From Escherichia phage Murica: 64,000 nt of DNA. Below the pieces are notes generated by a model. It was not told the DNA's origin. It worked only from the letters and a program-made list of their open reading frames with translations, and searched no databases. Shown here piece after piece: positions 4,800 through 41,339 of this stretch; the first letter of the stretch is position 1, and each line of letters begins with the position of its first letter. The position numbers were made by a program, and so were the translations under genes. The stretch lies in sequence record NC_041871.1; one strand, 5' to 3'.

Positions 4800-4801
4800 T
4801 A

Positions 4802-5415: not shown

Positions 5416-5420
5416 CGGTA
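5392..5420 (-). repeat. 29-bp exact repeat, copy A (inverted relative to copy B at 7254-7282), spans the start codon
   Basis: Reverse complement of 5392-5420 equals 7254-7282 (TACCGATGTCTAAAGTTACTTATCGTGCA). Confidence 0.9.
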
Positions 5421-5428
5421 AGGTCTCC

Positions 5429-6603: not shown

Positions 6604-6643
6604 AAGTAAGTGCTCCTATGTTAGTTTTCTTTCGAATGGGTGC

Positions 6644-6672
6644 ACTATATTGTGGAGTTAGAGTAAAGTCAA
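6644..6672 (-). promoter_or_regulatory. sigma70-like promoter, TTGACT-N17-TATAGT, minus strand
   Basis: -35 is reverse complement of 6667-6672, -10 is reverse complement of 6644-6649, 17-nt spacer; about 40 nt upstream of the 6603 start. Confidence 0.55.
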
Positions 6673-6685
6673 CACGTTTTTGATG

Positions 6686-6714
6686 TTGACATCTGTTGAG
6701 ACAATTGATACGAT
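6686..6714 (+). promoter_or_regulatory. sigma70-like promoter, TTGACA-N17-TACGAT with TG extended -10, plus strand
   Basis: TTGACA at 6686-6691, 17-nt spacer, TACGAT at 6709-6714 preceded by TGA; upstream of ATG 6746. Confidence 0.5.
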
Positions 6715-6745
6715 TTCTTCACTTACAGAGCACGAGAGACGACTC

Positions 6746-7723: not shown

Positions 7724-7727
7724 TGAC

Positions 7728-7744
7728 AGGGGCCAATGGCCCCT
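7728..7744 (+). promoter_or_regulatory. intergenic hairpin AGGGGCC-AAT-GGCCCCT
   Basis: Perfect 7-bp stem immediately after the TAA at 7721-7723 and before the RBS (GGAG) of the next gene. Confidence 0.4.
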
Positions 7745-7756
7745 TCTGGAGTTTTA

Positions 7757-9217: not shown

Positions 9218-9232
9218 GAGAGGAGGTTATTT

Positions 9233-9496
9233 ATGGCAACAGAGTTAAAATTTGCATCAAACCGTAAAACTAAGAAGTATCTGTCCTCAGTAGCTCCAGG
9301 CACTGTGGTGATGTTTGTTGATGAACTTGGGGATGTGAATACAGCACTTGTTGTAAAATCACATCCTGCAAACATATATGTTGGGGTATTTGACCTGTTC
9401 AGAAAGGTGTTTGTAGAACTGCCTCACAGTTTGGTTGTTACAGAAATGGATGCCTGCATAGAAATTCTTGGCGAAGTTATGGTGGAGGAACAATAA
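9233..9496 (+). CDS. small protein, tandem paralog 1 of 4 (87 aa)
   Basis: AGGAGG RBS; shares MAT…K…GTVV…V.K…FDL…LP…VTE.D..I.ILGE with paralog 2. Confidence 0.5.
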   Translation: MATELKFASNRKTKKYLSSVAPGTVVMFVDELGDVNTALVVKSHPANIYVGVFDLFRKVFVELPHSLVVTEMDACIEILGEVMVEEQ

Positions 9497-9759
9497 TGGC
9501 TACCAGCATTGTATTCAATTCTAAGGTGAAGAACAAAAAGCGTGCAGACAGTTTTCCGTGTGGGACCGTGGTAAGTTGCGACGGAGACGGCATTCAAAAC
9601 ATAGTTATGATTGTCAAAACAGGAGAACATTGTGTGTGGGGGTTCGATTTAGAAAATAATGAGTTGTACGATCTGCCGCCAAACATGAAAGTTACAGAGC
9701 TTGACACCAAAATTACCATCCTTGGAGAGACAAGCTATTCAAAAGAAGGAGGAGAATAA
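9496..9759 (+). CDS. small protein, tandem paralog 2 of 4 (87 aa)
   Basis: Start overlaps the upstream stop; alignable to paralogs 1 and 3. Confidence 0.5.
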   Translation: MATSIVFNSKVKNKKRADSFPCGTVVSCDGDGIQNIVMIVKTGEHCVWGFDLENNELYDLPPNMKVTELDTKITILGETSYSKEGGE

Positions 9760-10022
9760 TGACCACAAAAATCACTATCGCAGAACCGAAAGCTAACACT
9801 CAGCCTATCGAAAAGTTTAAGTGCGGTGAGGTGGTAACATTCACACCAGATAATGAAGATGCTAAGATTTTCGCAATGGTCACAGCTGAGTGGATGTGTG
9901 ACAACACCACACAGGTTCTGCGTTTTGACACCTATCTTACCGATGAAATCAGGAACGACAAGATTGTGACTGGTGTGGATACTGAGATTGTTTTCTACAA
10001 GAGCTTTTTAGAGGGTTTCTGA
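9759..10022 (+). CDS. small protein, tandem paralog 3 of 4 (87 aa)
   Basis: Start overlaps the upstream stop; KCGEVVTF and RFDTYL regions align with paralog 2. Confidence 0.5.
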   Translation: MTTKITIAEPKANTQPIEKFKCGEVVTFTPDNEDAKIFAMVTAEWMCDNTTQVLRFDTYLTDEIRNDKIVTGVDTEIVFYKSFLEGF

Positions 10023-19446: not shown

Positions 19447-21192
19447 TTAACGTTGTGCAATTACTACGTCTACGATATCACCAACACCACAATACGTTAA
19501 TTGCAGCAAGGTAACACTGTTAGCCCTGTTGTTAATAACAGGTGTTGCCGACAGGATAGCATACTTATCGTGCAAAGTCACGTTGTGACCTACAGCATCC
19601 TGAATTACATAGATAACCGCAGTGAACGGATAAGGTTTATCTTCCGCTGATGTCCCAGGCCACTGCCCTATTGTAAAATCCCCTTTAGCGTGGACAACAT
19701 ACATACTGGCCTGCCCGTTAGGTGTCCATGTCCCACTGGACGCGTCAACCTCCTCTAAATCGAAATCTACCTTCCCTGCGTGGAAAGTAGGGGCAGTGAT
19801 GGTTTTACCAGCCTCAATTTCTTGAGAGGTGGTTATCTTACCACTGGAGTTAATGCCATTACAGACAAAGTTGACATTAGAGAAGTCTGGCAGCCATCCG
19901 GTCACCGTGCCGGATATTTCAAGGTTGTGAACAGAGGTGGTGCCAGTCCCTGCTGCGTTTAAACTGACATCTCCATTTACCTGCAAGTTGCGGGTAACGT
20001 TGCAGTTTTCAGAGTTTGCAGTTGTTGCAGTTAAAGTGGTTGTTGTCAGCTCGGTAATTACACCTTTGTTGGCTGTAAGCCCTTCTCCTTCAAAAGTTGC
20101 ACGCTCATTGACTCTTAAGGTATTCAGAGCTATGTTTTGGATAGAGGCCGTACCTCGAATAACTACAGACCCGCCAACCTCCAAATCACCATTTATTAAT
20201 GCGTCACCCGTGCTTTCAATATAGCTAGGGTAGATCATGGTGCCATCTACAGAGTAGGTTATCCCTGTAACGGTGCCTGTCACCTCAAGGTTCTTAACCC
20301 TGGTGGTCCCATCGACCTGCAATGTCGGTTCGGTTGCTGACTTCATGGCATTACCACGAATGTACACGTAGTCAAAAAAGTTATTACCCAGACCATCAAA
20401 ATGCACATCGTTATTATTAGCCACTGGTTTCCCGGAAGTTATAGTGTCAGCTATAATCCTGTGGGTGGACACTTCATGAGGTTGCAGCTCTGTGCTTCTC
20501 CAGTCTGCATGCTTAGGATCGCTCCACGCAAAAGTGAGTGTAGAAGTATTTGCCGTGAGGATTAGGTTCCTGAAGCGTGCAGTAGAATCTGCTCCATTAA
20601 CAGGCCCATGTAAGGTAAGGGTGCCTCCAACTATGGTGTTGGCGAGTTCTGTAAGACCTTTTACCACCAAAGACCCTACAGTAACTTTCATCCCCTCCAT
20701 GGCTTCAAATATGCTATCAACATAGTCAACAACAAACTCTGTGTTTGCTATAGACTCTGACTTATCGTCCATTGGAGGTGTAGGTACTCGCGGGTCACCT
20801 TCGAACCTTGGGCTGTTAAGTTTTGCGTAATATTTTGCCATTACTGCAGAATCGGTGTATAATCTCCAGTTTGGAGATTGTGAAGGATCTGCTGGCATTC
20901 TAACCGGGTTAGATTTTGATGCTGCGGGAGCGTACCACCACTGAGGGCCTGTGTCCCCTTTAAACTCATACAGCTGGTTAAAAACTGTTGTGGATGCACC
21001 ATACGCCCAAGGGATCGGTGGCGTTTTAAAATAAAGGTTGTCAAGCATGGCTTTTCGTACCGTAGGGATGGTGGTCCCATCCTCTACGACAACTTCATCC
21101 ACAGCGTTACCGTTGACAACCAAGTGCAAACGTTCAGAATCAACAATTACTTGATCTACCGCCTGCTCAAAGCTTGTCATGTCTTGCGCCAT
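19447..21192 (-). CDS. tail fiber-like protein, 581 aa
   Basis: Position in the fiber cluster; Thr/Gly/Asn-rich repetitive composition. Confidence 0.4.
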   Translation of the reverse strand: MAQDMTSFEQAVDQVIVDSERLHLVVNGNAVDEVVVEDGTTIPTVRKAMLDNLYFKTPPIPWAYGASTTVFNQLYEFKGDTGPQWWYAPAASKSNPVRMPADPSQSPNWRLYTDSAVMAKYYAKLNSPRFEGDPRVPTPPMDDKSESIANTEFVVDYVDSIFEAMEGMKVTVGSLVVKGLTELANTIVGGTLTLHGPVNGADSTARFRNLILTANTSTLTFAWSDPKHADWRSTELQPHEVSTHRIIADTITSGKPVANNNDVHFDGLGNNFFDYVYIRGNAMKSATEPTLQVDGTTRVKNLEVTGTVTGITYSVDGTMIYPSYIESTGDALINGDLEVGGSVVIRGTASIQNIALNTLRVNERATFEGEGLTANKGVITELTTTTLTATTANSENCNVTRNLQVNGDVSLNAAGTGTTSVHNLEISGTVTGWLPDFSNVNFVCNGINSSGKITTSQEIEAGKTITAPTFHAGKVDFDLEEVDASSGTWTPNGQASMYVVHAKGDFTIGQWPGTSAEDKPYPFTAVIYVIQDAVGHNVTLHDKYAILSATPVINNRANSVTLLQLTYCGVGDIVDVVIAQR

Positions 21193-24590: not shown

Positions 24591-26663
24591 TTATGAGAAG
24601 TCTGGCGGGACAACATCTTCTACATACCCTTTCAGAGCAACCTGCCCCATATGAAGCACGGTAGAATCTCTAGCGGTAACAGTGATGCTGTCAGACATTA
24701 CTTGCGGGTATGCCCACACATACTGTTTTACCTCAGGATATCTATACTCTATAGTTGCCATGTTTCCGCAAATACATCTCCATAAAAATTCTTGGTAATT
24801 CCTGGTTGGGTCGTAACCATATACCGGAGCAAGCTCTTTACTAGGAACGAACCCTGCAAGGTATTGTATTTCAGACGGTTGCCAACCTAACTTAACGATA
24901 GGTATGTTTACAGACTCTTTTGCCTTTTCAATACCTCCCTGCATCACCCAATCGTAGCACTCGGTGCAGAAGAAATCAAGAGCACCTGCTTCCTTTTTAT
25001 ATTGGTCAGCAAGGTTAAGCTTTTGCGTAAGCTCGGTTTCCATAATGGTTGGGAAAAACAGCAGAGCTGTCATCTGAGCTGATGCAGCGTGTGCCTTTAT
25101 TGCCTTTGAAATAGCCGCAATACGAGCGCCAAGCTTACCACGACAAAATGCTACATACTTATCGTAAACACCTCCAGTTTTAGGATCGTCAATAGTCCCA
25201 ATATCTAATGCATACTCGCCTGTCTCATCATAAAACGCCTGTTTTGTAGGGTAATCATAAATACAAGGTCTACGAGTATCGGTATTGTACCACCACCACG
25301 GTTCACCAACCTGCATAATCACTGGCAGGTTGTTTCTCATAGCGGCTGATGCAAAATTCTTAAATACTGCAGTAAGGAAATTCATACCCTCTTCAATGGT
25401 TGGAGACAGGAGGTAGCTACAAGGTGTATACCCTGTTTTAGCGTAGTTATCGTTCCAGTCTCTTTGGGTCCATTCCAACGGGCAGGCATCGCTGAAAAGC
25501 TCAAAACTTACAGATTGCATAACGTCGAAGTTATGTCGTTTGGCATTGTACATAAAATCATCATGCCATTTATAAGCTGCAGCGTTTAGCGCTCCTGTTC
25601 TGTTTATAGACCATTGGGTTCCTGACCATGTGTAGTCATAATAATGACTCATACCAACATAATGGTTTATGGTTCCGGTATAGCCCAGACGCTTGATATT
25701 GTTCAACACCCTTAAAGGAGACACGTTCCACATATCGTCATATGCGGTGCAGATCCCAACATCGTGCTCTCTCACCTGGATATTGTTAAGTTGCATCATT
25801 TTCCAGCCTGTGTCTGGCTGAAGCAGATCTAGGCGCAACTCACACTCTACATTTTCCGTTCTCGGGTCTGTGCTATTACTTACCCAGTCTTTAGGCATAA
25901 GCGGTATTAAAATCCTTCTCACCTGCCGAGGATCAACACCCATCATGTTGTTGTTCTGGTCCATCCCGACGCAGTCCTCAAAATCAATATGAATTTCTGC
26001 AACATTCTTATCCTCTGAGATGCTGACAGCATATTGAGCTAAAGGAACATAGATGATTGTGCCATCAACAAGGTCTACAGTCATAATCATCTTTTCAGGA
26101 GTGGAGAAGTTGCTGGCGTTGGTTATTGACATTCTGAACCAAAGCTTGGTGTTTCTCATCTCATAGTGATCATCAAACCCAATACCGAAATGGTCATACT
26201 TGTCAACTGTTTCCCAAATGCACCCAGCCATACCTCCATATGTTCTTGACACTAAACGGTTAATACAACAGTTGTTATCTGCAACAATACAGGTACTTTC
26301 AGTCTGCTGAGTGGTTGTAACCCAATATCTTGGGTGAAACATTCTCTCCTCAATAGTATCCCAAGATATCCTGTCAAGATTCTCATCTGAAACTATTGTA
26401 CATTTCGCCCTTTGTGTTCCAATCATCACCCCTTGAGATTTTGATGAAAACTCCATAAAGAAGCTTCTTGGCAACCTGTTGGGTAATTTGTCAACAATTT
26501 CCACGGGGATCTCAATACTGGTTGCCCCAACTGGGATAGTTACATCGCCCTCAACATGATCATAATCCCTACCAGGAACGGCAGTATCCTGAACTGTTCG
26601 GTAATGAAACCGTGCAGCCATTGTAGAGTAATCACGGTAAGGTTTAAAAACAGCTGTTGCCAT
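24591..26663 (-). CDS. structural (fiber/baseplate-associated) protein with N-terminal Calx-beta-like domain, 690 aa
   Basis: N-terminal AVPGRDYDHVEGDVTIPVGATSIEIPVEIVD resembles Calx-beta; position between baseplate-like genes and fiber genes. Confidence 0.4.
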   Translation of the reverse strand: MATAVFKPYRDYSTMAARFHYRTVQDTAVPGRDYDHVEGDVTIPVGATSIEIPVEIVDKLPNRLPRSFFMEFSSKSQGVMIGTQRAKCTIVSDENLDRISWDTIEERMFHPRYWVTTTQQTESTCIVADNNCCINRLVSRTYGGMAGCIWETVDKYDHFGIGFDDHYEMRNTKLWFRMSITNASNFSTPEKMIMTVDLVDGTIIYVPLAQYAVSISEDKNVAEIHIDFEDCVGMDQNNNMMGVDPRQVRRILIPLMPKDWVSNSTDPRTENVECELRLDLLQPDTGWKMMQLNNIQVREHDVGICTAYDDMWNVSPLRVLNNIKRLGYTGTINHYVGMSHYYDYTWSGTQWSINRTGALNAAAYKWHDDFMYNAKRHNFDVMQSVSFELFSDACPLEWTQRDWNDNYAKTGYTPCSYLLSPTIEEGMNFLTAVFKNFASAAMRNNLPVIMQVGEPWWWYNTDTRRPCIYDYPTKQAFYDETGEYALDIGTIDDPKTGGVYDKYVAFCRGKLGARIAAISKAIKAHAASAQMTALLFFPTIMETELTQKLNLADQYKKEAGALDFFCTECYDWVMQGGIEKAKESVNIPIVKLGWQPSEIQYLAGFVPSKELAPVYGYDPTRNYQEFLWRCICGNMATIEYRYPEVKQYVWAYPQVMSDSITVTARDSTVLHMGQVALKGYVEDVVPPDFS

Positions 26664-28956: not shown

Positions 28957-31900
28957 TTAGTCGTGAGACTCGTTCCAAGGTCCCTGGAAGCTTGAGTTAG
29001 AACGACTAACGATCACAGTGGGACAGGAGATTGTGACACCTGTCACGCTAGACGTTGACCACGGTGTGTAAATCTCGACAATAATGTCTATAGTTTGTTC
29101 ACCTAGACCAGTTATCCCTACCGCACACATGCCGTTGTTGTCGTTTCCGTACTTCTTACCTGCAAGGATTTGATGTCCGGCTATCCAAACGTTAAGCTGG
29201 GAGCCAGACAATGTTCCGTTTAGTTTAAAGAAGAATGTTACGTTCTTACCTTGTCCTGAAACGTTGTCCACATATCTCCACCTCCAACGGCAAACCCTCT
29301 GCTGCGAGTTGTATACTGGAGGACAGTCACCGTAGGTTCTGTGTGCAACTATTGCACCTTCGAACTGGTTAGCACGGATAACAGAAGCTTCTACCCGCCC
29401 ACGGAAGGTACCTCCAGTTGCATCTATGGTACCCCTAAAGTTACCATTATTGGCATAAACATCTCCACGGAAGGTACCACTGGTGGCGTTAACTGCCCCT
29501 GTGAAGTTACCAGAACTGGCGTTGATGTTGCCTTTCACCCACACATCCATAAATTGGGCGTGCCCGTTCTTGTTAATGTACCAACCGTATTTATGGTACC
29601 CGTTGCCATCGTAGTTGTTTGACGAAATTTCTTGTGCGATCTTGGCAGAGGAGATCGTGCCATTCTCTATAAAAGCGTCTTTCAAGAACGCTTGGTTGTT
29701 CTTGATTGCGAAAGCAAGGGTTGCTGTTCCATTTCCAGGGTTGTATACCGCAAAATTGTTTGCACTAACCATGAAGTAGGATTGAACTTGTCCTCCAGAC
29801 CCCTCCATGCCTAGCTGGATACCTGCAACATACTTATTCCCTGCAGAGTCTACCTGAATCTTAGCTCCCCACTGAGCATTTATTTTACCCTCAAGTGTTG
29901 TTACAGCTTTAGAGGTATTAGATACTGTAGCCCTGAGCTCATCAATATTACCCATTTCGTCAACAATTTCTTGTTTTGCAGAGGTAAGTTCTTGACGGAT
30001 CGCTGTGGCTGTATTATTAACAAGATCAACTGTTGTACTATTAGTTTCTTGAATAGATGCTTGCAGATTGGCAACCTCTTTCTGCACATCATCTTCCAGC
30101 TTGGTGATCTTCCCTGTAGCTGCCACCAGATCCTGCTTAATAGCTTCCGTTGTCTTATTTAGCAGATCTGTTGTTGCCTTGTTGGTTTCTTGAATAGAGG
30201 AGTTAAGTTTGCTCTCAGTGTTCTTCAACTCTTCCCGCAGAGTACCTTGAGTTGCAGTTATTTGCTCACTCAATGCTTGAGTTTTACGATTAACAAGATC
30301 AACGGTTGATCTATTTGTTGTCTCGATTAGTGACCCAAGCCTACCAGACTCTGCTGCAAGTTTATCGTCAAATGATTGCTGAGCTGCTACCAGCTTACTG
30401 TTAAGGGCAGAAATTTCTCCATTAACCCCTGTAAATTTTTCTGTCGTCTCTCTGACAACACCCTCTATTGTATCCCCAAGCTCTTCAAAAATGCTAGTAA
30501 CACGGTCATTGACTGCACCAACATTTTTATCCATTTCCTTGACTGCATTATCAAGATTGGCGGTAAGCTCTTTATAAGTCTCTGTCTTTTTGAACTCAGC
30601 ATCAATCTGTGGCATAAGGTCTTCTATGGATGTGTAACAGTGGGCTGCACACTCCACAAAAGCAGATGAACCAAAAGCATTTGTTGTCCTGATATACCAG
30701 TAATAAATCTTATCGTTCTGCAGACCTTCAGATGTCCAAGTTGAACCAACACCCATACGAGTGGCTTTTGAAGTAACGGTTGCATCACTGGTATCTGGCA
30801 ATCTTGTCATCCCAGATGTCCAAAAGTCGTACTGGGTGCTTACACTAGCCAAGTCTCTGCTGTGCGGGATCAGGGTAATAGCAAAGTATCCCTGTTTAAC
30901 CTCCACAGAAACAGGAGCTTCAGGTGCCTGAATGTTGAACTCACAATATGCTTCCGGAGATACGCCACCTTTATAAGATGTTGCAACCACGGTTGCTGTG
31001 TATGACCCTTTTGTCAAACCTTCTACTCTGACAAACTGCTCAACTGTCTGTGCTGTCCAAACAATCTCTCCGTTCTTTCTTACCTGCACAATATTTTGAG
31101 CGTAAGTCCCAACGTTGTCCCAGGCCAAAACACCGTGAGTTACTTCCCCAGCTTGGAGAACGGAGTATCTGAAGTTTTGCGGCTGAGCTACACCGGACGG
31201 GGATATCGGAATATCTACATCGCCGGAATCCGGAAGTTGCCCTGTGGCATCATTCCACTCTTTAGCATCTTGACGAAGTTTTACCTTGACACCGCCCTTT
31301 TTGGTGAACTCCCATTCAAGAACCCTCATTTCTTGGCCCACTATACCAATACTTGGGAGGTCCATTGTAACATAACGGCCAGGCTTAAATTTAAAACCTC
31401 GCATATTGCAGGTGACTTCAATAATCCTGCCAGCTCTAGCACGTCTTAAGAAGATTGCAGAAACACGCTGAGCTTGATAAGGGCTGGTAACAAAGCGATA
31501 GTCTATATCGATTATCTTTCTTTCTCCATCCTTCTCTATCCACTCTGGGACAAACACTGATGGAAAATCTGTTTCAGAATACCCTTTGGTAGGACTGGTG
31601 AATCTGCCAGTTATTGTGTTGGATCTTTTGTCAAATGAGGCTTCCGGATAGATCTTGACCTCACCACAGACACAATCCTCACTCAGTGTCATTGTTGCCG
31701 GGCCATAGTATGCACCAACCAGCAAACCATACTTACCAGCTACATAGCTGAGATCTGCACCACAAGCTTTCAGCATTTCTGCCATAATGCTTGCTGGGGC
31801 CTCATCCATGTCAAACTCACCGTTAATGGTGTAACGTCGCTCACTGGTTCCGTCAGCGTTTTTTACCGCCTCGTCGCATATGTTGGCAGCCTCCTTGAAG

Positions 31901-32556
31901 GACTCCCAGTTAATGGTTTCGTCAGGACATTTGAGGTACGTTCTTAAATAGTCTAGGATCACCAAGGCCGCGTTATTGGTATACACTTCTTTACTGATAC
32001 GAGGATCATAGCATTTTTTACCAACCTTGACAAGTGTAACGTTTGGCAACCCAAAAGGAAACTTGTTAGGGTCAAACCTGAAGCTGGCACGTAGCCAACT
32101 GATCCCTCTACCTATCATGTCGGGTGACCATGATGGGCAGTGTGTACCCATGAAAGGATCAGATGTTTTTCTGTCGTTATGTAGCTCCCACGATACCAGA
32201 TCTCCATACGAGGAAATAGGATTACCGTCGATAAGTATATCTTCTATACCTTCCAGAGGGTGATTGGCAAGAACAATAGCACAATGGAGGGTTCTGTCGC
32301 TATCCTGCTCCAAAAACGCAAGCAATCCGGATGTGCGTGTCTTCCCATACACTACAGAGCAGGGTGCAGCAGAAGATCTGAGAAGCTTTTGTCTATCTTG
32401 CTGACTTCTGTAAGATTTGTTGCCCTCAAAAATCTTATCCAGAGTTCTGGTGGTAACAGTGTTCAGGCTGTCAGCCAGAGCTGCCTTGGATGCGTTCCAG
32501 TCATAACTTGAAGATCTTGCAGAAGCAACGATGTTATCAATCATTGCAATTGGCAT
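28957..32556 (-). CDS. large tail protein (host-specificity/central fiber-like), 1199 aa, with long repetitive coiled-coil and Gly-rich C-terminal repeats
   Basis: Internal repeats (…IQETN..TTDL.N.T..AI.Q.L… several times); C-terminal SGNFTGAVNATSGTFRGDVYANNGNFRGTIDATGGTFRG repeats. Confidence 0.45.
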   Translation of the reverse strand: MPIAMIDNIVASARSSSYDWNASKAALADSLNTVTTRTLDKIFEGNKSYRSQQDRQKLLRSSAAPCSVVYGKTRTSGLLAFLEQDSDRTLHCAIVLANHPLEGIEDILIDGNPISSYGDLVSWELHNDRKTSDPFMGTHCPSWSPDMIGRGISWLRASFRFDPNKFPFGLPNVTLVKVGKKCYDPRISKEVYTNNAALVILDYLRTYLKCPDETINWESFKEAANICDEAVKNADGTSERRYTINGEFDMDEAPASIMAEMLKACGADLSYVAGKYGLLVGAYYGPATMTLSEDCVCGEVKIYPEASFDKRSNTITGRFTSPTKGYSETDFPSVFVPEWIEKDGERKIIDIDYRFVTSPYQAQRVSAIFLRRARAGRIIEVTCNMRGFKFKPGRYVTMDLPSIGIVGQEMRVLEWEFTKKGGVKVKLRQDAKEWNDATGQLPDSGDVDIPISPSGVAQPQNFRYSVLQAGEVTHGVLAWDNVGTYAQNIVQVRKNGEIVWTAQTVEQFVRVEGLTKGSYTATVVATSYKGGVSPEAYCEFNIQAPEAPVSVEVKQGYFAITLIPHSRDLASVSTQYDFWTSGMTRLPDTSDATVTSKATRMGVGSTWTSEGLQNDKIYYWYIRTTNAFGSSAFVECAAHCYTSIEDLMPQIDAEFKKTETYKELTANLDNAVKEMDKNVGAVNDRVTSIFEELGDTIEGVVRETTEKFTGVNGEISALNSKLVAAQQSFDDKLAAESGRLGSLIETTNRSTVDLVNRKTQALSEQITATQGTLREELKNTESKLNSSIQETNKATTDLLNKTTEAIKQDLVAATGKITKLEDDVQKEVANLQASIQETNSTTVDLVNNTATAIRQELTSAKQEIVDEMGNIDELRATVSNTSKAVTTLEGKINAQWGAKIQVDSAGNKYVAGIQLGMEGSGGQVQSYFMVSANNFAVYNPGNGTATLAFAIKNNQAFLKDAFIENGTISSAKIAQEISSNNYDGNGYHKYGWYINKNGHAQFMDVWVKGNINASSGNFTGAVNATSGTFRGDVYANNGNFRGTIDATGGTFRGRVEASVIRANQFEGAIVAHRTYGDCPPVYNSQQRVCRWRWRYVDNVSGQGKNVTFFFKLNGTLSGSQLNVWIAGHQILAGKKYGNDNNGMCAVGITGLGEQTIDIIVEIYTPWSTSSVTGVTISCPTVIVSRSNSSFQGPWNESHD

Positions 32557-32993
32557 TAATACCTCCAGACATCAACAACTATAGAATCTTTCATGTCGAA
32601 CATAAAGACCCCTTTATCACCTTTCGCCAAAATCTGGTTGTTCCAGAACACACCAGCGGTGAGCCCGTTCAGACCTTCGAAGATAACAATATCGCCACGC
32701 TGAACCTGTTTAGGAGTATCTAGTCGAGTCATAAAGAGATCAAAAACAGTAGGCAGGTGTGTGGTTTTGAAACGGAGCATGCACCATCTTTTGCTTTCCA
32801 ACTCTGTTTTATACGTTCCTTCGAAGTTAGAAAGAAAATCTGTTCCGTATTGGGCATCAACACACTTAGCTGCAAAGGTGCAGCAATCGTGGAATCCCCA
32901 TTCAAAAGGTATGGTGGCCTCTTCGTCAAACACTTTCCACAATCTTTCTTGCCAATCCACTAAACGAGGGTGTGTGCTCATTAAACCTCCCAA
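32556..32993 (-). CDS. tail-associated protein, 145 aa, with FHDCC motif
   Basis: Coupled to the 1199-aa gene; the conserved Cys cluster hints at a peptidase-like or assembly role. Confidence 0.3.
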   Translation of the reverse strand: MGGLMSTHPRLVDWQERLWKVFDEEATIPFEWGFHDCCTFAAKCVDAQYGTDFLSNFEGTYKTELESKRWCMLRFKTTHLPTVFDLFMTRLDTPKQVQRGDIVIFEGLNGLTAGVFWNNQILAKGDKGVFMFDMKDSIVVDVWRY

Positions 32994-33547
32994 ATGATCG
33001 GGCGGCTCGCCACCTGATCCACATATTTAAAAAATCTGTCATTATCGTTTCTTGAGCTGTGGCTTTCCTCCGTGTACCGATAAGGAAAACCTCTTAACCA
33101 ACTGTTGAAGATGGAAGAAATGGATATGGACAAAGCACTATTCTCACCCGTCTGAATAGCCATATCTGTTATAAGGCCGTCAAACAAGCCATTGGTTGTA
33201 ACAGGCAGACCATTCTCCATAGCGGTAATGTACAACGTGGCACGACACCCAGAATACTCCGTCTTCAGCAGATCACCCACATACTTAGGATCAAACCCGT
33301 TCAATGTCGCTACCACAGATCCGAAGTTGGTGGCATCTTTCTCAGACACAGCAGTTAATGTTGCTGATCCACCTATCCCTATAAAATGTTGCCCCTCAAT
33401 TACTACAACACCAGTGCCTGAGCACACCCTGACAGTTCCTGTCGGTAGCTCCAGCTTTGCAGCAATTAAGATCTCAACACCATCAAGCTCCAGCTTTTCA
33501 AGAAATAAATTATCTAATGGCGCTCTAATCATCTTAGAAATCCTCAA
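32981..33547 (-). CDS. putative tail protein, 188 aa
   Basis: Overlapping, coupled ORF in the tail module. Confidence 0.35.
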   Translation of the reverse strand: MRISKMIRAPLDNLFLEKLELDGVEILIAAKLELPTGTVRVCSGTGVVVIEGQHFIGIGGSATLTAVSEKDATNFGSVVATLNGFDPKYVGDLLKTEYSGCRATLYITAMENGLPVTTNGLFDGLITDMAIQTGENSALSISISSIFNSWLRGFPYRYTEESHSSRNDNDRFFKYVDQVASRPIIWEV

Positions 33548-34124
33548 AGAAGTTGATAACTATATTATCACCTTTTTGCATAGCATCGACTTTTTGCTTA
33601 ATTTTATAAATATCTCTGATATGAAACCTACCCTTTGGGGATTGAGTTATTATCTCCATAGTATCCCCTGCGGCAATAGGTTTTCTAAGTCTTGGAGATA
33701 TGCTTATAACAGCAGACCCAACACCATCGCTACGCACTGGAGCGGTTACCACTTTCAATTCATCATTGACAGATATTTTATCCCCAGCTCTAGCTATGTC
33801 TCTGTTTGGCTCCCACCCAACCGTCTTCAAAAAATCGTCGTTACCAGTAGGCCCAAGGGCGATTGGCTCATTAGCTGTAACTGAGTGACCGTAAGTTTTA
33901 ATAAGAAAGATGTTTCCATCTTTATACACCTGATCAACAAAGCTCTTAAGCTCTAGCAACTGTGACTCGCTGATATTGGAAACCGTCAAAGTGCCTTTCC
34001 AGTTAGGTGTGGCATAGGTTACTTTTTGCGTTTTACCTGTAAACGGACTTTTAAACGTAACAATATCTGCCAGCAGCTCCAATCTAATATCTGGAAGGTA
34101 TCTAGGCCTTTCCCATAAAAACAT
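33534..34124 (-). CDS. putative tail protein, 196 aa
   Basis: First gene downstream of the 34156-34184 promoter. Confidence 0.35.
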   Translation of the reverse strand: MFLWERPRYLPDIRLELLADIVTFKSPFTGKTQKVTYATPNWKGTLTVSNISESQLLELKSFVDQVYKDGNIFLIKTYGHSVTANEPIALGPTGNDDFLKTVGWEPNRDIARAGDKISVNDELKVVTAPVRSDGVGSAVISISPRLRKPIAAGDTMEIITQSPKGRFHIRDIYKIKQKVDAMQKGDNIVINFFEDF

Positions 34125-34193: not shown

Positions 34194-34220
34194 AAAGCCC
34201 CCGCCGAAGCGAGGGCAAAA
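34194..34220 (-). terminator. rho-independent terminator (variant of the CCCCGCCGAAGCGGGG hairpin)
   Basis: GCCCCCGCCGAAGCGAGGGC stem-loop followed on the minus strand by TTTTTGTTTG; directly after the stop of the fiber gene. Confidence 0.55.
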
Positions 34221-34223
34221 CAG

Positions 34224-37200
34224 TTACTTCAGTTTCTCTTGCAACCCAGTAACAACCTCTGTCAATTTTTTAACCTGCTCCTCAAGGGCGGTTATTTTAT
34301 CGTCCTGTTCCCTGCAAACCTGGACAAGCAAGCCTGTTACAGCTGCGTAGTCAACGTTATAGAACCTTTCTTCTGTTATCAAAGGAGTTCCATCTTGATC
34401 AGGATTTGGGATTTCCTTCCTTTTCACGAAAGACCCTACTGCCTCTGGCAATGCTTCCATGACCTCTTGAGCAATTACCCCCGCGTGAGGCATACCATTC
34501 TCTTTTAAAGTGTAGGTATAGCCCTTCATCTTACGGATAGCTTCCAGCGCGTTAGGAATAACCTCTATATTGTCCTTCAGGTCTCTATCAGAGCTCTGGC
34601 TCACAGTGGTGCACTCTACTACACCGTTGACAGCAAAATATCTTGACTTAGCCTCGTCTGACCTAGTGCCACAGTGGAATACCCAGCTAGCAGATGCAGC
34701 GTTGTCGTTTACCTGAAACTCAAGCACGTTCTTCCTGTCTGCGTTACCCCAATAGAACATTCTACCTGTATTGGTAGGTAAGTTATCGGCGTTGCTAGAA
34801 AGACTATTAGCACCGACATGAATTTCCAGTTGATTACTGGTTTCACCAAAAGTGTAATTAGGTCTTAACTGAATGCCTTTACCAGCATCGTGTCTCCATT
34901 CTTCCCAAGTAAAGACATCGCCAACGTAGTTACCAGCACGAGTATATCTGTCACCAAAATAGGTGATATATTCCTGCACACAACCTTGAGGTCTGTTAGC
35001 TGTGTTTTTGTAAACAAGCAGTGTACCAGCGTACGGAGCAGGGTAGTGGCGATCTATTACAAGTGCGTCAGCGTTTGAACCTTGGTGATAGAAACCTTCA
35101 CGGCTACCATCGTAGGCATTAAGGTCTTCTGTCCCCAGACCTTGACCACGGTGCTGAATAACTTTGTTCCACGCCCTGTGGTTACCACCCTCAATAGATC
35201 TGGTGTATAACTGATCAAGGCGACCAGCCATTTGGAAAGCATAGTTTCCAGAAAACGCCACAGACAGTCCACCAACAACCATCGAACCTTCCGGTCCGTT
35301 GACATTGCCAGCCATTATCTTGGAGGGGTTTGTATTACCAAACTGATTGTTCCAGTCAGCACCTGTCTGGCAAACATAGCCTCCAGGAGGGAAAAATGTG
35401 CCGTCTTTGTTGAAATTGTAGAACTTATGAGCTGTACCTACAACATCGCGAACGATAACTTGACCAGCTTCCGGAGTAGATCTGAACTCTGCCTGGCCTT
35501 GCAGTCTTGCACCATTACCACATTTAGAGGTAAAGGTGTTGTTGATCAGATCCTCTGTTCCTTCCGATGCAGCTTGGAACCCTGCGTTAGAGAACAGTGC
35601 TTTTCTAGTGGTCTGACTACCAGGACAAATGTAGTCAATACCGTCTGCCCAAAGCTCGACTTTAGGCATGTTCATTTTGCTCATCACTGCATAGCGTTCA
35701 GGAGTCCCCAGGTAGTGCCACATAGTTCCACCACCAGTGTAGAAACCTGATGTTCCTTTGAACTCAACCAGAGGTCTGGTGTTTGTTACATCATCACCTT
35801 TGATTGCAAGACTCAAATCTGCAGATTCCAGAGGAGCACAGAACTTGACACCATCTTGGTTACCTGTCACGTTGCCTACCTGCCAATCAGCCTCCCTGGT
35901 TGACACTTCTATTACAGTAGCGCCAGCATATACCGTAACAGGGAATGCACGTGCCTCTACATAGAATGCAACATACTCCTGCTTACCTCTGGTTGGAGAT
36001 ACACATCCGAGGATTGCTCTCTCGTTTTGGTAGAAATTAATAACCCCTTGGAAAGAATCACCTCTGTCTGTCCAGCCACCAGTTCTGTAGTGACACTGTA
36101 GTGTAGCACAGTTCATTGGGTCGCCGCCAGAAGAAGATCTGGTGACAATGGTTAAATCTGTCCCGATAGTTGCTGCAAAGTTGGGGTCAGTTCTGACGAT
36201 AATAGGATAATACTTACCGTCCTGCATAGCTGCAGTTCTAGGCAGGTTTACATATGGTCTAGCACCTGCTGCCAGAGGGATTCTGAATTGTGCTTGAGCA
36301 TCCCCTACAGTCCTGGCACTGGTACCACCACAAGCTATCGGTAGTGGTTCCCATTTGGCTTTCCGGTTGTTATAAACACCCCACTCAAGCGTTCCTTCAC
36401 CTTGCTCGTCCATACCGCCATCCCAAATGACCATCTTGGCGGCTTTCTTAGATCCCCAGAAACCTCTTTCTGCTCCTGAACTGCGGATCCATTCTCCAAG
36501 TCCCCAGTTTGTCAGCTGACCAGTAAGATCCCCAACCTGCATATATTTAGGGCAGTCTAATACGCCGTCTTCGCGGAAACCTAAATATTTATGAGTTTCA
36601 GATCCTTTTGCACCTTTGTGCAGGTGGATTGTCAGCCAAGCCTTATTGTCGTTTCTTACCTCAGAGTAGATCCTATATCCATGCTCAAGAACACCATCGG
36701 TGTTATATTTATCTCCATGGAGAATACCTGAGGCCGATTTAACATCTCCAGAGTATTGAGCTAAGTAAAGGTGCCCAAAGGCTGGCGAGTTGTTTTTACC
36801 AAGGCCAATATGAGATCTGAAGGTATCATCGTTACGAGGTCTGACCATCGGCTGCCATGCAGTCCACTGATTTGTGTTGGCCTGATAGGTTCTCAAATAC
36901 CAAACATCTACGTTAGAGAATGGATAGTATTCCTGACGACAACCTGTACCTCCGTTAGCATTGTTCTGCCAAACAATCAAGTGACCAGCACCAGAACCTG
37001 CAGGGTAACCATTTGCCTCGGTTGCATAAGCAGTCATCGGCTGGTAGTATACACCATCCTGATTACCAGTCAAGTTATTGATATTGAAATTTGACTCAAG
37101 AGCTGCACGTTGCTTATAGAAAGCCCCTAAGTTAATGCGTGCACCTGCGGCATCTCTGGCCCCCGTACCGCCTTGCTCTATAGCAAGAGGCTGCCACGAG

Positions 37201-38036
37201 GCTGTTTGTTGGTTCCACATGCCCCAACGGCCTGTTGCGTCAAGCTGCAAGTACCCTGCCGTGTTTAAATCATCTCCAGCACGGATAACTGTTCTTGTTG
37301 GGTTGTTTGCCTCCAGGCGTTTAAATTCATCACGAAGTGCTATTCTTTTTGTTGTTGCTACACCGTTGGTTACTGCGATGGTATACATGGCTCCGGATGT
37401 AGCGCCACGGAAAATACCATCAACAGTTGTAGTATCACGACGAGATACCACACCGTTCAGAAATTTTTCACCAGCTGCTACAGAAGGGTAGTTGGTGGTT
37501 CTTCCCTCTTCAATAACTGCAGGACCCACAAAGTTATCAAGGTGAATAACATCACCTACAGTGTGCACCGTACCAAAATCTACACGCTGTGCAAGTGCTT
37601 TAGCATCGTTAGCTGTCTGAACAGTAACATCCATTACATCCTGGACAGACTGCCCTTCGGCTGTCATGATCATAGATGCGCCAATGGTAGATTCCAGCTC
37701 CTCCCTTAGGGACGGGTCAGTATATACCATCCATGCAGCGTCAGTAATCCCACCATCGGAGTACGGTGAAGATAGTGCAGGAACAGTGTGTGGAAATTCG
37801 CCTTTCCAACGCAGGTAGAGATCTTCCTCTTCGAAATAGGCAAAATCCATTGGGCCGTTTAACTTACCACCTTCCTTAAAGGAGATTACATGAGAAACAG
37901 TCCCATCCACATGGACAACATCGCCAATTTTTACACGACGGGTCAGGTCTGGTTGTTGAACAACCAGGTAATCATCCTCTGTCACTGCGGTAGTGGCAGG
38001 AAGAGATTCAATTCTGACAACTTTAATATCAGCCAT
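34224..38036 (-). CDS. tail fiber/tailspike protein (1270 aa) with C-terminal intramolecular chaperone (S74-like) domain
   Basis: C-terminal SDRDLKDNIEVIPNALEAIRKMKGYTYTLK followed by a coiled-coil, typical of the self-cleaving chaperone domain. N-terminal 100 aa homologous to the N-terminus of 40671-41339. Confidence 0.6.
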   Translation of the reverse strand: MADIKVVRIESLPATTAVTEDDYLVVQQPDLTRRVKIGDVVHVDGTVSHVISFKEGGKLNGPMDFAYFEEEDLYLRWKGEFPHTVPALSSPYSDGGITDAAWMVYTDPSLREELESTIGASMIMTAEGQSVQDVMDVTVQTANDAKALAQRVDFGTVHTVGDVIHLDNFVGPAVIEEGRTTNYPSVAAGEKFLNGVVSRRDTTTVDGIFRGATSGAMYTIAVTNGVATTKRIALRDEFKRLEANNPTRTVIRAGDDLNTAGYLQLDATGRWGMWNQQTASWQPLAIEQGGTGARDAAGARINLGAFYKQRAALESNFNINNLTGNQDGVYYQPMTAYATEANGYPAGSGAGHLIVWQNNANGGTGCRQEYYPFSNVDVWYLRTYQANTNQWTAWQPMVRPRNDDTFRSHIGLGKNNSPAFGHLYLAQYSGDVKSASGILHGDKYNTDGVLEHGYRIYSEVRNDNKAWLTIHLHKGAKGSETHKYLGFREDGVLDCPKYMQVGDLTGQLTNWGLGEWIRSSGAERGFWGSKKAAKMVIWDGGMDEQGEGTLEWGVYNNRKAKWEPLPIACGGTSARTVGDAQAQFRIPLAAGARPYVNLPRTAAMQDGKYYPIIVRTDPNFAATIGTDLTIVTRSSSGGDPMNCATLQCHYRTGGWTDRGDSFQGVINFYQNERAILGCVSPTRGKQEYVAFYVEARAFPVTVYAGATVIEVSTREADWQVGNVTGNQDGVKFCAPLESADLSLAIKGDDVTNTRPLVEFKGTSGFYTGGGTMWHYLGTPERYAVMSKMNMPKVELWADGIDYICPGSQTTRKALFSNAGFQAASEGTEDLINNTFTSKCGNGARLQGQAEFRSTPEAGQVIVRDVVGTAHKFYNFNKDGTFFPPGGYVCQTGADWNNQFGNTNPSKIMAGNVNGPEGSMVVGGLSVAFSGNYAFQMAGRLDQLYTRSIEGGNHRAWNKVIQHRGQGLGTEDLNAYDGSREGFYHQGSNADALVIDRHYPAPYAGTLLVYKNTANRPQGCVQEYITYFGDRYTRAGNYVGDVFTWEEWRHDAGKGIQLRPNYTFGETSNQLEIHVGANSLSSNADNLPTNTGRMFYWGNADRKNVLEFQVNDNAASASWVFHCGTRSDEAKSRYFAVNGVVECTTVSQSSDRDLKDNIEVIPNALEAIRKMKGYTYTLKENGMPHAGVIAQEVMEALPEAVGSFVKRKEIPNPDQDGTPLITEERFYNVDYAAVTGLLVQVCREQDDKITALEEQVKKLTEVVTGLQEKLK

Positions 38037-38071
38037 TCTTTCTCCTGAAAGGGGGCAAACAGCCCCCTATG

Positions 38072-40669
38072 TTAAAGGTACAATCCACGGTATTGAGCAT
38101 AAAGGCCCAGACCGCGAAGGATTTCGCCAGAGTGATAGCCCACCGGATCAGAAACTGCCCAGCAGCCGTTTAAAACATTATCCCCATTGATGAAGTGGTG
38201 CTTTTGCAGTAGCTTCATACAGGCTTCTACAACAATGTCTATTTGAGGTATTGTCTCTGAATACCCGCACAGACCTAGCCAGCAGCAACCTGCAAGCCAT
38301 TCACCTACCACCCACATCCTGTCCCCTCTGTCTTGATAAGAATATCCCCCAGAGGTGTTAAAGTCTGTAGGCAGATTTCCTGAATGAGATGACTGGAATC
38401 TGTTGAGGAACCATGCCCATTTCTGGCAGAACAGGAATAATCTTTCATCAACAGGTTCTTTATGTTTCTTGAGCTCATAGATTGTGCGGCACGCAGCAAC
38501 AAAAGATCTTGACTGGAGCTTAGAGTTATCTACCATCTCCCACCAACCAGTCAGCCCTTCATTACCTCTCTGCCATACATAACGCGAGGCAACTGGACCC
38601 TCTGTCTTAAATGTATTATTATACCAGACTTGAGCGTCATACAGAAAGCCTATTGTATTTGACAATCTATGGCGATCTATGTTTTCTGCACCCATGCAGT
38701 ATACTGCTGGGTATTGCATGCCAGGGTAGGGCCAATTTGGCTTTTCCTCTAAGAGATAGTTTTCCTTATCTATCACCTTTCCGGCAGGGAACACACCTGG
38801 TGTGTGCCTGTATGCACCTTGCTTGTAGTTTCTGACATAGCAATCACCAACCTTAGCGGTTGATTCTGTCTTGCTTGCCATCCATACGCTAAACCATATT
38901 AGATAAGCATCCCTATCTGCAATATAGAACTGCGGCAGCGTGTTTACGCAGTACAGATCAAACAAGCCATTACCTATCTGCCTGTCGCTTAGGCTGAAAT
39001 CTACAGAGGTGAGCCCCTTAGGATTAGCAAAGAAAGGTTTAATCTCTTCTTCGGTGTGATGAGGTTGTGTCGGATCTAGTTTGAAATCTCCTAGAGTAAG
39101 AGTTTCTGTTATCCATTGTCCATTAGTGGCATATAGATCAGCATACCATAACCACCTATCTTTGTCAAGAAATTTGACCCTTACCATCTCATCATCTGAT
39201 CGATAAGTTACTGAGTTTAAAGAAATCTCTCTACCAAAATTGAAAGTTACTTTACCTCTTGCTATATTACAACGGGTGAAGTTGTCAGAGTGGTTGTAAA
39301 TGTCGGTATCATACTGCATACTAACACTAGCGCCACCGCTTACGACAATGTTTTCCTCTTTAGGTAAGAGATACGGATTACCGTCTTTACCAACTACCTC
39401 TACGAAATCAGTAACCTTGGCAACTATTTCTGTTACCTCTGCCCCTCCAAAAGGAACCCCTATCCTGTACTGTTTTTTGTTATTGTTGCCATCATTAAGG
39501 ATGAAATGTGGCTGGAACAGAACCCCTTCTCCTCCGAAATTCATAACAATTTCAGCATCTCTGCCTATTTTGTATGTAGTCCCTTTTTGAATTATTTCGC
39601 AAGGCTGGCGTGCGTTCATTCTAAAATTGATATACCCGTCACTGTCCCTGCTCATGGCAGGAACTGTTCCTGCAACAAGGCAAGTACCATCTGTAAACGG
39701 TGCCTTAATCAACGTGGTCTTCCTAAACAGTTTGTCGTAGGCGTTTATATCACTGAAATTAAGCAATTTGTTGTAAGACTGTTTAAACGCGGTGTAATAC
39801 TTTTCCTCACCTGTCAAGGTGTAGAGTTGATAACAAGCGTCACACCACATTTCTTCCCCGTCCAACTCTGGGGCCTGATTATCTGCAACCACGTTTATAG
39901 GATTTACAATTACAGGGGATCCTGCAGGTATCACCGATCCGCCCTGCTCTTGAGGTAATCTTACACAATAGGTCACCTTGTGGCTGCCTGTAACACCCTT
40001 ATCTTGTAATTGGATTGTGCCGAACTCTACAGACGTATGACCACTGTCGGCTATGCTACCGTTAGCCCAATAGCGGTTACCATCCCATGCTATGTACCAC
40101 TCAACCCACCAACTTAATCCGGATGTTGTCCAATCTGGGTTAGCATCTGTGCCACCGTAAACATCAGAGTCTACAGTGTTTCTTCCTAACACACCGTTAT
40201 ACGCTTGGAATGCCTTGTCAAGGTATTCCCCCCATGTCGGAGATCCAGCTGGGATTTTTCCTCTACCGTTGGTAAAAGACACCACCACATCTTTAAACCC
40301 ACCATGTGATGGAACCCCATCTGTGGATAGAGGGTAGTGGGACAATCTTTGCATTTTACTTTCTACTGCATATGTACCCAGAAGATGGCTATTGTAAGCT
40401 TCCCAAGCATCTTTTGCCCTATCCAGATAGAAATCGCTTTTCGATGCCCTGTATGCTTCAATGTATCCCAGAATCAACACAGCTTGGGACTCATGCATTG
40501 CCCAATCATTATTTATCTTATTACCTGCCCACCCTGCAGCTATAAGACCATCAGGGTTTACTAGCTTATTTTGTGTAGAGGTGTTGGTAATACCTGTGTT
40601 GTTATCGAGGCACTTCCTGTGCCCCTCAATCATCTGAAATACGTTATCAATGTTATGTTGAATACGCAT
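38072..40669 (-). CDS. large tail-associated protein, 865 aa (possible enzymatic tailspike)
   Basis: Coupled to the anchor-domain protein upstream; Trp/Tyr-rich composition suggestive of a carbohydrate-active fold. Confidence 0.35.
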   Translation of the reverse strand: MRIQHNIDNVFQMIEGHRKCLDNNTGITNTSTQNKLVNPDGLIAAGWAGNKINNDWAMHESQAVLILGYIEAYRASKSDFYLDRAKDAWEAYNSHLLGTYAVESKMQRLSHYPLSTDGVPSHGGFKDVVVSFTNGRGKIPAGSPTWGEYLDKAFQAYNGVLGRNTVDSDVYGGTDANPDWTTSGLSWWVEWYIAWDGNRYWANGSIADSGHTSVEFGTIQLQDKGVTGSHKVTYCVRLPQEQGGSVIPAGSPVIVNPINVVADNQAPELDGEEMWCDACYQLYTLTGEEKYYTAFKQSYNKLLNFSDINAYDKLFRKTTLIKAPFTDGTCLVAGTVPAMSRDSDGYINFRMNARQPCEIIQKGTTYKIGRDAEIVMNFGGEGVLFQPHFILNDGNNNKKQYRIGVPFGGAEVTEIVAKVTDFVEVVGKDGNPYLLPKEENIVVSGGASVSMQYDTDIYNHSDNFTRCNIARGKVTFNFGREISLNSVTYRSDDEMVRVKFLDKDRWLWYADLYATNGQWITETLTLGDFKLDPTQPHHTEEEIKPFFANPKGLTSVDFSLSDRQIGNGLFDLYCVNTLPQFYIADRDAYLIWFSVWMASKTESTAKVGDCYVRNYKQGAYRHTPGVFPAGKVIDKENYLLEEKPNWPYPGMQYPAVYCMGAENIDRHRLSNTIGFLYDAQVWYNNTFKTEGPVASRYVWQRGNEGLTGWWEMVDNSKLQSRSFVAACRTIYELKKHKEPVDERLFLFCQKWAWFLNRFQSSHSGNLPTDFNTSGGYSYQDRGDRMWVVGEWLAGCCWLGLCGYSETIPQIDIVVEACMKLLQKHHFINGDNVLNGCWAVSDPVGYHSGEILRGLGLYAQYRGLYL

Positions 40670-40670
40670 C

Positions 40671-41339
40671 TTAGATAGCTCCTGCGATAATCAGTGCCCC
40701 GTACCAAGTTAACCCGTTGTCGTAGGTTTCCAACTTGAAAATATCTGTTGCACCAGCTGTAAATGTTAGGATAGGATCTCTTCCGTAGGACCATTTAACA
40801 TTACCAGGCCAATAGACTTTGTTGCCGCCAGAGGTCTGAGTAATGCATACGGTTATAGTTCTCGCCACCCCTTCAAGACCTTCTGTTTGATTTTCAAAAG
40901 AGATTGTGGTATTTGAAGTTAGTCGAACCTTAAAGGTATCCGCAACTTCAAGATCCATATCAAGCTGACCACCGATAGATCCGTAATCAACTATTCTGCC
41001 AGAAGAAGTTGCAGCAAGCTCACCAAAAACAGACCAGGCATTTGCAGACACGCCCCCAGCACCCTCTACGGTGGAGTCTGGGAGGATTATTTTAGGATAA
41101 TCCCCGTTCCACGTGTAGTAGCGCTTAGTCTCTGGGTCATAAGCAAAGTCCTTCTTGCTCTTAAGATAACCACCCTCTGTGAAATAGACTATCTTAGTAA
41201 TACTAAGATCGTTGACAACATCGTCAATCTTAGCCTTTCTTGTCCCATCAGTCTGGTTGACAACCAAGAAGTCATCACTCAGGACTGTTTCTGCATCTTC
41301 AAGATCTGGAATTGGTATTGTAGGATAAGCTACAGCCAT
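40671..41339 (-). CDS. tail fiber N-terminal anchor-domain protein, 222 aa
   Basis: Shares DDFLVVNQTDGTRKAKIDDVV…EGG.L…DFAY with the N-terminus of 34224-38036. Confidence 0.45.
   Translation of the reverse strand: MAVAYPTIPIPDLEDAETVLSDDFLVVNQTDGTRKAKIDDVVNDLSITKIVYFTEGGYLKSKKDFAYDPETKRYYTWNGDYPKIILPDSTVEGAGGVSANAWSVFGELAATSSGRIVDYGSIGGQLDMDLEVADTFKVRLTSNTTISFENQTEGLEGVARTITVCITQTSGGNKVYWPGNVKWSYGRDPILTFTAGATDIFKLETYDNGLTWYGALIIAGAI

Follow-up and report, generated by a model that had tools for sequence, protein, structure and literature searches.

Phages of the rV5-like and phi92-like groups are prized for their broad host range. In Escherichia phage Murica (NC_041871.1), of which a stretch of 64,000 nucleotides (the window) was analysed here, three consecutive genes at positions 34224 to 41339 raise the question of whether a long tail fibre and a short protein of 222 residues that begin with the same domain are mounted as two separate appendages, and what part is played by the protein of 865 residues encoded between them. 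The reading that we favour, and to which we attach moderate confidence, is that an rV5-like myovirus carries two distinct host-recognition appendages, both mounted via a homologous N-terminal plug, with the 222-residue protein acting as an adaptor for the 865-residue protein.

The positions and lengths of the three open reading frames (ORFs) agree with a preliminary description made from the letters of the sequence; all lie on the minus strand, at 34224-38036 (1270 residues), 38072-40669 (865 residues) and 40671-41339 (222 residues). Escherichia phage EduardKellenberger (Bas59) matches the 7.1-kb region from end to end at 96.5% identity, and upwards of 100 further rV5-like Vequintavirus genomes match it at 88-95%. 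The counterparts in rV5, at nearly equal coordinates, are gp41 (tail fibre, 1272 residues), gp42 (tail protein, 865 residues) and gp43 (tail fibre protein, 222 residues).

Two proteins with a common N-terminal module

The preliminary description had noticed a resemblance between the N-termini of the fibre and of the 222-residue protein, and this resemblance is upheld by formal alignment. By BLASTP, residues 7-105 of the fibre align with residues 8-105 of the 222-residue protein at 38% identity and 55% positives, with one gap (E=3e-18). When either N-terminus was searched with phmmer against all six-frame ORFs of the 64-kb window, the only other protein matched was its partner (E ~1e-17 to 1e-18); the next best match had E>0.1, so that no further protein with this anchor was found in the window, and rV5-like genomes have exactly two places that match the module. 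It occupies residues 1-105 of the fibre (37722..38036, minus strand) and residues 1-105 of the 222-residue protein (41025..41339, minus strand), where it is a putative plug. Both proteins pass the cut-off of 25 bits for PF18668 (Tail_spike_N), the fibre with 40.7 bits over residues 46-103 and the 222-residue protein with 41.0 bits over residues 51-105, and the PF18668 region has sequence matches in the PDB to TSP1, TSP3, TSP4, Sf11 gp13 and others. The similarity extends over the ~45 residues preceding PF18668, an N-terminal peptide that no Pfam family covers and for which the consensus is MA..x.I..LP.....V...D.LV..Q.D.T.K. The proposal that two proteins with the same attachment module are the basis of two appendages is judged to be supported; rV5 proteomics lists gp41, gp42 and gp43 (PMC3606486), which contradicts the absence of the 865-residue protein from virions that would have spoken against the proposal.

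The fibre itself, a lateral tail fibre orthologous to rV5 gp41 (34224..38036, minus strand; phrog_6578 over the full length), begins with an anchor, continues in a long shaft with two GGTGA/GGTSA collar motifs (at residues 289 and 570) and a distal part that can be swapped, and ends in an S74 chaperone. This intramolecular chaperone domain (Peptidase_S74, residues 1149-1270; 34227..34592, minus strand) had been suspected from its signature and is recovered by PF13884 at residues 1149-1200 (E=1.9e-16, 60.6 bits vs a cut-off of 22), the match spanning profile positions 1-57 of 58. The motif SDRDLKDNIE begins at Ser1149 (codon 34590-34592), Lys1154 follows five residues on, and the C-terminal piece is 122 residues long. 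The spacing of the Ser/Lys dyad in the S74 family is known from K1F EndoNF and T5 pb1. By analogy with the family, the fibre is predicted to cleave itself at Ser1149 with Lys1154 as the dyad partner. The C-terminus of rV5 gp41 was already matched to PDB 3GW6 in the rV5 paper (PMC3606486). In one allele of the fibre (L008:10990-15429, 1479 residues), 86% identity over residues 1-1049 gives way to a different C-terminus of ~430 residues, in which no S74 domain was detected. Because this allele switches after residue 1049, the exchangeable unit of the fibre is the distal ~220 residues including the chaperone; allelic variation of the fibre gene has been reported (PMC8594841), in line with this allele.

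The C-terminal domain and the 865-residue protein

The remainder of the 222-residue protein, residues 106-222 (40674..41024, minus strand), is a conserved all-beta C-terminal domain, here called C-dom, with the motif Q-G/T-S/T-G-x-N-K-V..W-P..V-K-W..G..P.L...G.T-D....D.G.T-W.G. The whole protein is 99-100% conserved in ~95 phage records, is reported in rV5 virions and has a conserved C-terminal domain of its own, and on these grounds we rejected the idea that its ORF is the remnant of a fibre gene that had been duplicated and then decayed. Outside the rV5-like phages only its C-terminal ~110 residues are conserved. Small proteins of phi92 (gp140), phAPEC8, phiEa104 and Rosemountvirus AV127 match C-dom at E=1e-15 to 1e-28, their N-termini are unrelated or partly related to that of the 222-residue protein, and the small gene of each adjoins or overlaps the start of a gene of the 865 family. 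No match to C-dom was found among PDB sequences, even by profile search.

This pairing of genes was tested both ways, in IMG/VR loci found through C-dom (n=73) and in assessable loci found through the 865 family (n=66). A gene of the 865 family lies directly downstream in 60 of the 73 C-dom loci (two of the other 13 stop at a contig edge), and a C-dom ORF lies directly upstream in 65/66 of the assessable 865-family loci. The sole exception, on a 237-kb jumbo-phage contig (L142:4164-7760), has no C-dom and carries instead an extension of ~265 residues fused to the N-terminus of the module. C-dom proteins range in length from 107 to 563 residues; the shortest class, of 107-143 residues, consists of C-dom without a plug and precedes 865-family relatives of 1612-1633 residues in L115, L126 and L128 (~positions 4556-9875). 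In the window the two genes meet at a TAA-G-ATG junction with GGAG upstream, and because of this junction they are probably translationally coupled. A programmed frameshift or split gene joining the two ORFs was rejected, as they lie in separate frames and the second has its own ribosome-binding site; moreover, the 865 module starts at residue ~1-17 in homologues (8/8 of those in the database), that is, at the protein N-terminus, and stop/start overlap is usual elsewhere.

Genes for a chaperone and its client are typically coupled tightly in translation, and the small C-dom protein could be mainly an assembly partner or chaperone, in which case the 865-residue protein would attach alone and the N-terminal homology would be incidental. 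The C-dom-only proteins beside the 1612-1633-residue relatives fit such a role. We consider it quite improbable, since gp43 is reported in the rV5 virion proteome (PMC3606486) and since the C-dom gene precedes its partner, unlike the tail-fibre assembly gene of the window (PF02413, 22939-23523), which follows its fibre gene. N-terminal copies of resident structural proteins, 50-450 residues long and including a tail-tube domain, would also be odd in a non-structural chaperone, and where C-dom is missing, in a single family member, an N-terminal extension is fused on instead.

The 865-residue protein (38072..40669, minus strand) is the counterpart of rV5 gp42 and a member of the phi92 gp141 family, phrog_2871, which is represented in 523 phage records (Escherichia, Salmonella, Vibrio, Erwinia, Cronobacter, Aeromonas and others). 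It is rich in Trp (3.1%) and Tyr (5.5%), as the preliminary description had said. No match to it was found in Pfam, NCBIfam or PDB sequences. A profile search against the PDB gave only a match of 33 residues to cellobiose 2-epimerase (E=8e-4), and one homologue matches glycoside hydrolase (GH) family GH76 at E=0.005, under threshold. An AlphaFold2 (AF2) model built on an alignment of eight diverse sequences has a mean predicted local distance difference test score (pLDDT) of 64.9, which is moderate. It has helical hairpins at residues 59-96, 269-306 and 663-860 with beta-rich insertions between, and the fold predicted from it is an (alpha/alpha)6 barrel with beta-rich insertions at ~residues 100-268 and 329-613; a helix at residues 2-23 is conserved. 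The model thus supports a glycosidase-like (alpha/alpha)6-barrel fold. The earlier suggestion that the protein may be enzymatic gains from this fold, although no defined GH family could be assigned to it. The glycosidase idea is not new, because GenBank notes on the BASEL phages already name the protein a lateral tail fibre with glycosidase domains.

Among 18 non-redundant homologues (25-56% identity), E60, Q62, D270, D342, D502, D609, Q680, E849 and R852 are invariant; E60, D270, D678/Q680 and E849 are invariant or nearly so, and several of them are at the starts of barrel helices in the AF2 model. Some relatives have added C-terminal domains of lectin-like type. A less probable but serious alternative is that the protein is a non-catalytic structural or carbohydrate-binding module on an (alpha/alpha)6 scaffold, with the appendage serving as an adhesin or a baseplate strut. 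The invariant residues at helix starts (E60, D270, D678/Q680, E849/R852), retained across lineages that infect many genera, resemble a conserved active site, and the high conservation fits a conserved glycan target of the kind proposed for much of the locus (PMC8594841). Separately, Laminin_G_3 or Gly_rich_2 extensions were observed at the C-terminus of database relatives similar in length to the proteins of 1612-1633 residues.

The shared N-terminus in other lineages

For each locus the region before C-dom was searched against the other ORFs of that locus. Matches of N-terminus to N-terminus were found in rV5-like and phi92/phAPEC8-like contigs, in the large contigs L037 and L038, in phiEa104 and its relatives, in L064 and L071, and in the L013 group. 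Residues 9-46 of phi92 gp140 match residues 5-42 of the gp143 endosialidase; in L037 and L038 the small protein matches another S74 fibre, encoded immediately behind the pair (54% over 41 residues); and in phiEa104 and its relatives ~140-150 residues are common to the small protein and the upstream proximal tail fibre (E ~1e-12 to 1e-13). Sharing is also seen in ~20 siphovirus-like prophage contigs (the L013 group, L014-L036), where the C-dom protein (561-563 residues) opens with a major-tail-protein domain (phrog_158). The order there (L013:6609-11669) is C-dom protein, 865-family gene and then the true tail tube gene (155-157 residues) with the same domain, an arrangement which implies that a paralogue of the tail tube would serve to present the enzyme-like protein on the tail.

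In the myovirus pairs, the N-terminal ~50 residues align as one motif class, MA..I..LP...V...D.LV..Q.D.T.K. Peptide identity is 38-54% within pairs vs 18-27% for most cross-lineage comparisons in an alignment of nine sequences, with phi92 gp140 and the rV5-like fibre peptide (35%) nearly as close as the pair within phi92. Because pairs from one phage are closer than most comparisons across lineages, co-adaptation to a lineage-specific partner is suggested.

These values bear on a further explanation, rather improbable in our estimation, in which duplication has given both proteins a general-purpose trimerisation or neck module at the N-terminus, and the fibre and the 222-residue protein sit at non-equivalent places on the baseplate. 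PF18668-type domains do lie downstream of the true anchor in many tailspikes, but the similarity here also spans the first ~45 residues ahead of PF18668, and that short peptide is all that phi92 gp140 and gp143 have in common. The higher identity within phages than in most cross-lineage comparisons likewise argues against a generic module, although the value for gp140 and the rV5-like fibre tempers this point. Two precedents stand on the side of non-equivalent places: the modelled contact residues of Sf11 gp13 are 4-59, while the region homologous to the window proteins is 67-157, and the conserved N-terminal domains of the long and short fibres of Bas63 bind the long tail fibre (LTF) platform and wedge 2A, respectively.

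In the two-appendage arrangement that we favour, the first appendage would be the gp41-like trimeric fibre, with its plug, long shaft and exchangeable distal receptor-binding part; its S74 chaperone would act in folding of the trimer, after which it would release itself by cleavage at Ser1149. The second would consist of two proteins, the gp43-like adaptor and the gp42-like protein. Through its residues 1-~105 the adaptor would dock in a socket on the baseplate of the type that also receives the fibre, and the beta-domain at its C-terminus would hold the 865-residue protein, a globular (alpha/alpha)6 barrel that is probably a glycan hydrolase or a glycan-binding module aimed at a conserved envelope polysaccharide. 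That the adaptor links gp42 to the virion is what we infer from the two-way pairing (60/73 and 65/66), the fused exception in L142, the lineage-specific N-termini and the presence of the proteins in virions; direct contact between gp43 and gp42, the identity of the socket, its simultaneous or alternative occupancy, and catalysis with its substrate are postulated parts of the reading. As a Dit-like protein, gp40 was considered for the socket and is unlikely to be a general one, because phi92 has the same class of N-terminal peptide without the Dit module.

On this reading the pair behaves as a portable unit: C-dom and the 865 module would move together between unrelated phages, and the adaptor N-terminus would be replaced by a copy of the recipient's own module. 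More tentatively, the pair may be a widespread cassette of a small adaptor and a glycosidase-like (alpha/alpha)6 protein of ~900 residues, the adaptor N-terminus of which has repeatedly been swapped for a copy of a resident attachment module of the virion. Myoviruses of the rV5-, phi92-, jumbo- and phiEa104-like kinds would have supplied a fibre anchor for this purpose, and the siphovirus-like prophages their tail-tube protein. If true, such a cassette enables one and the same envelope-glycan enzyme to be carried by phages whose tails are unrelated.

Several observations weigh against the two-appendage reading, besides the Sf11 and Bas63 precedents. Plug-less C-dom proteins of 107 residues in the L115 and L126 lineages indicate that C-dom can function without an anchor. 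C-dom has 4056 matches at E<=1e-3, and because some of these relatives have 3-5 tandem stretches within long proteins, C-dom may be an Ig-like module of general use. Among the nearby tail proteins of the window, Pfam recognised no socket domain like those of T4 gp9 or gp10. In the cryo-electron microscopy (cryo-EM) study of phi92 gp140 is unplaced, fibre II is unassigned and gp141 is unmentioned (PMC13450770). Membership of the 865-residue protein in a curated GH family was not found at threshold, and 274 residues of its model fall under pLDDT 50. The AF2 model of the 222-residue protein, built on four usable sequences, is poor (pLDDT 46.6, ~68 in C-dom), so that its fold matches are only suggestive; the moderate confidence of the one model and the poor confidence of the other follow from alignments of eight and four usable sequences, respectively.

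The surrounding locus and comparison with known systems

On the minus strand the baseplate cluster begins with tape measure, tube initiator, plug, hub, spike and sheath initiator, the last a protein of 238 residues and the counterpart of phi92 gp139; the genes for the 222-, 865- and 1270-residue proteins come next, followed by a Dit-like/J-like block and the wedge proteins. Directly 3' of the fibre gene is a hairpin resembling an intrinsic terminator (34197..34216, minus strand), with 8 bp, 7 of them GC, and a T-run. A second, GC-rich hairpin (GGGGGC-loop-GCCCCC; 38050..38068, minus strand) lies between the stop of the 865-residue gene and the ribosome-binding site of the fibre gene. Its U tract is short and its significance uncertain (z = -1.4), and it is unconvincing as a terminator next to the better one after the fibre gene. 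Because of the terminator-like hairpin past the fibre gene and the hairpin with a weak U tract before it, transcription of the fibre may be partly uncoupled from that of the adaptor/enzyme pair.

Some neighbouring features were also observed. The block at 28957-34124 (minus strand) is a tail-tip block of siphovirus type within the myovirus baseplate cluster. It comprises a Dit-like protein of 196 residues (phrog_1302), proteins of 188 (phrog_2048) and 145 residues (DUF6950) and a lambda J-like protein of 1199 residues with Phage_Tail_Tip and Ig_J domains and a partial lambda_TipJ. The rV5 annotation notes similarity to the siphovirus PY54, and the block is absent from phi92; the Dit-like/phrog_2048 pair also follows the tape measure gene in the siphovirus-like L013, which has the adaptor/enzyme cassette too. 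A protein of 690 residues (24591-26663, minus strand), orthologous to rV5 gp34 and phi92 gp142, has the N4 gp65-type domains PF23844 and PF23845 (E=4e-80), that is, the N-terminal domain of a non-contractile tail sheath and a TIM-barrel, and this receptor-binding protein is tied to the NGR glycan in the literature. The fibre protein of 581 residues (19447-21192, minus strand) resembles phi92 proteins at both ends, sharing ~110 N-terminal residues with gp150, a colanidase tailspike, and ~95 C-terminal residues with gp151; on this similarity we take it to be a second, different class of anchor in the same apparatus. Finally, ~18-23 GenBank records of 'Campylobacter phage' (MG0656xx, host C. jejuni) are ~92% identical in DNA to the rV5-like coliphages here and up to 99-100% identical in the proteins of the locus; judged by this identity, the host label looks doubtful.

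The locus belongs to a known class of multivalent or branched receptor-binding apparatuses (phi92, CBA120, G7C and K1-5-type adaptors), and its genes were already annotated as tail fibres. An S74-like C-terminus in gp41 and a tailspike-like N-terminus in gp43 were noted in 2013 (PMC3606486). In the searchable literature we found no explicit mention of the N-terminal homology of gp41 and gp43, no description of C-dom and the (alpha/alpha)6 family as strict partners and none of lineage-specific plug replacement, including by a tail-tube-domain plug. These findings refine a known modular principle and overturn nothing; the sharing itself is real but fairly ordinary, and the mechanism is one that we infer. 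As a rule for reading such loci it would give concrete assignments for cryo-EM maps such as those of phi92: the small protein is the plug carrier, C-dom carries the enzyme-like partner, and the plug resembles that of the neighbouring fibre. It would also offer a handle for engineering, in which an exchange of plugs fits a different phage with the cassette or with a new fibre. Should gp42 be an enzyme acting on a conserved envelope glycan, it may help these phages to pass surface polysaccharide barriers.

The closest comparison is with phi92, where syntenic orthologues lie downstream of the sheath-initiator gene. Its gp141 is 35% identical to the 865-residue protein (E=1e-176), the C-terminus of gp140 is 42% identical to C-dom, and gp143 (EndoN92) is an appendage with an S74 chaperone, the first ~40 residues of which resemble gp140 and the rV5-like fibre. 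In contrast, gp140 (157 residues) is without PF18668, gp143 is an endosialidase tailspike and not a fibre of 1270 residues, gp142 lies between gp141 and gp143, and there is no Dit/J-like module after the fibre gene. In the 2026 cryo-EM study of phi92, fibre I sits on the wedge protein gp145 and its base is where fibre II is located (PMC13450770); if the cassette reading is true, gp140-gp141 is a candidate for either fibre II or the proximal arm of fibre I.

Both window proteins carry the PF18668 TSP1/Gp66 N-terminal domain, as in CBA120 (TSP1-4) and G7C (gp63.1-gp66), in which several receptor-binding proteins are mounted through modular N-terminal and adaptor domains. Docking in those phages, in the work of Plattner in 2019 and of Prokhorov in 2017, is reportedly onto T4 gp10-like domains within another tailspike. 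Here, however, Pfam found no T4 gp10-like domain in the tail proteins scanned, and the cargo would be a separate, probably non-fibrous (alpha/alpha)6 protein on a small adaptor rather than a beta-helix tailspike. With the K1F endosialidase and T5 pb1 the fibre has in common PF13884 at the extreme C-terminus, the Ser-x4-Lys arrangement (S1149/K1154) and a piece of ~120 residues with coiled-coil character; it differs in that release of this piece is a prediction and in that the L008 allele has a different end, without a detected S74 domain.

Phages of the Bas63/Felix O1 type likewise have two appendages on one myovirus with a conserved N-terminal baseplate-binding module, and phiEa104, of the same subfamily as Bas63, shows the N-terminal sharing between small protein and fibre. 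The two domains of Bas63 have no apparent sequence similarity and bind different baseplate partners, whereas the similarity here is clear. Lastly, the Dit-tailspike adaptor of Sf11 is alike in that a resident structural protein of the tail provides, or is copied as, the attachment point of an enzymatic appendage, but it is a helix on Dit that bundles with N-terminal helices of the tailspike, while here the adaptor would be a separate small protein. The L013 group resembles tail-tube display proteins in that its adaptor opens with a major-tail-protein domain; the rV5-like plug, by comparison, is not a tail-tube domain.

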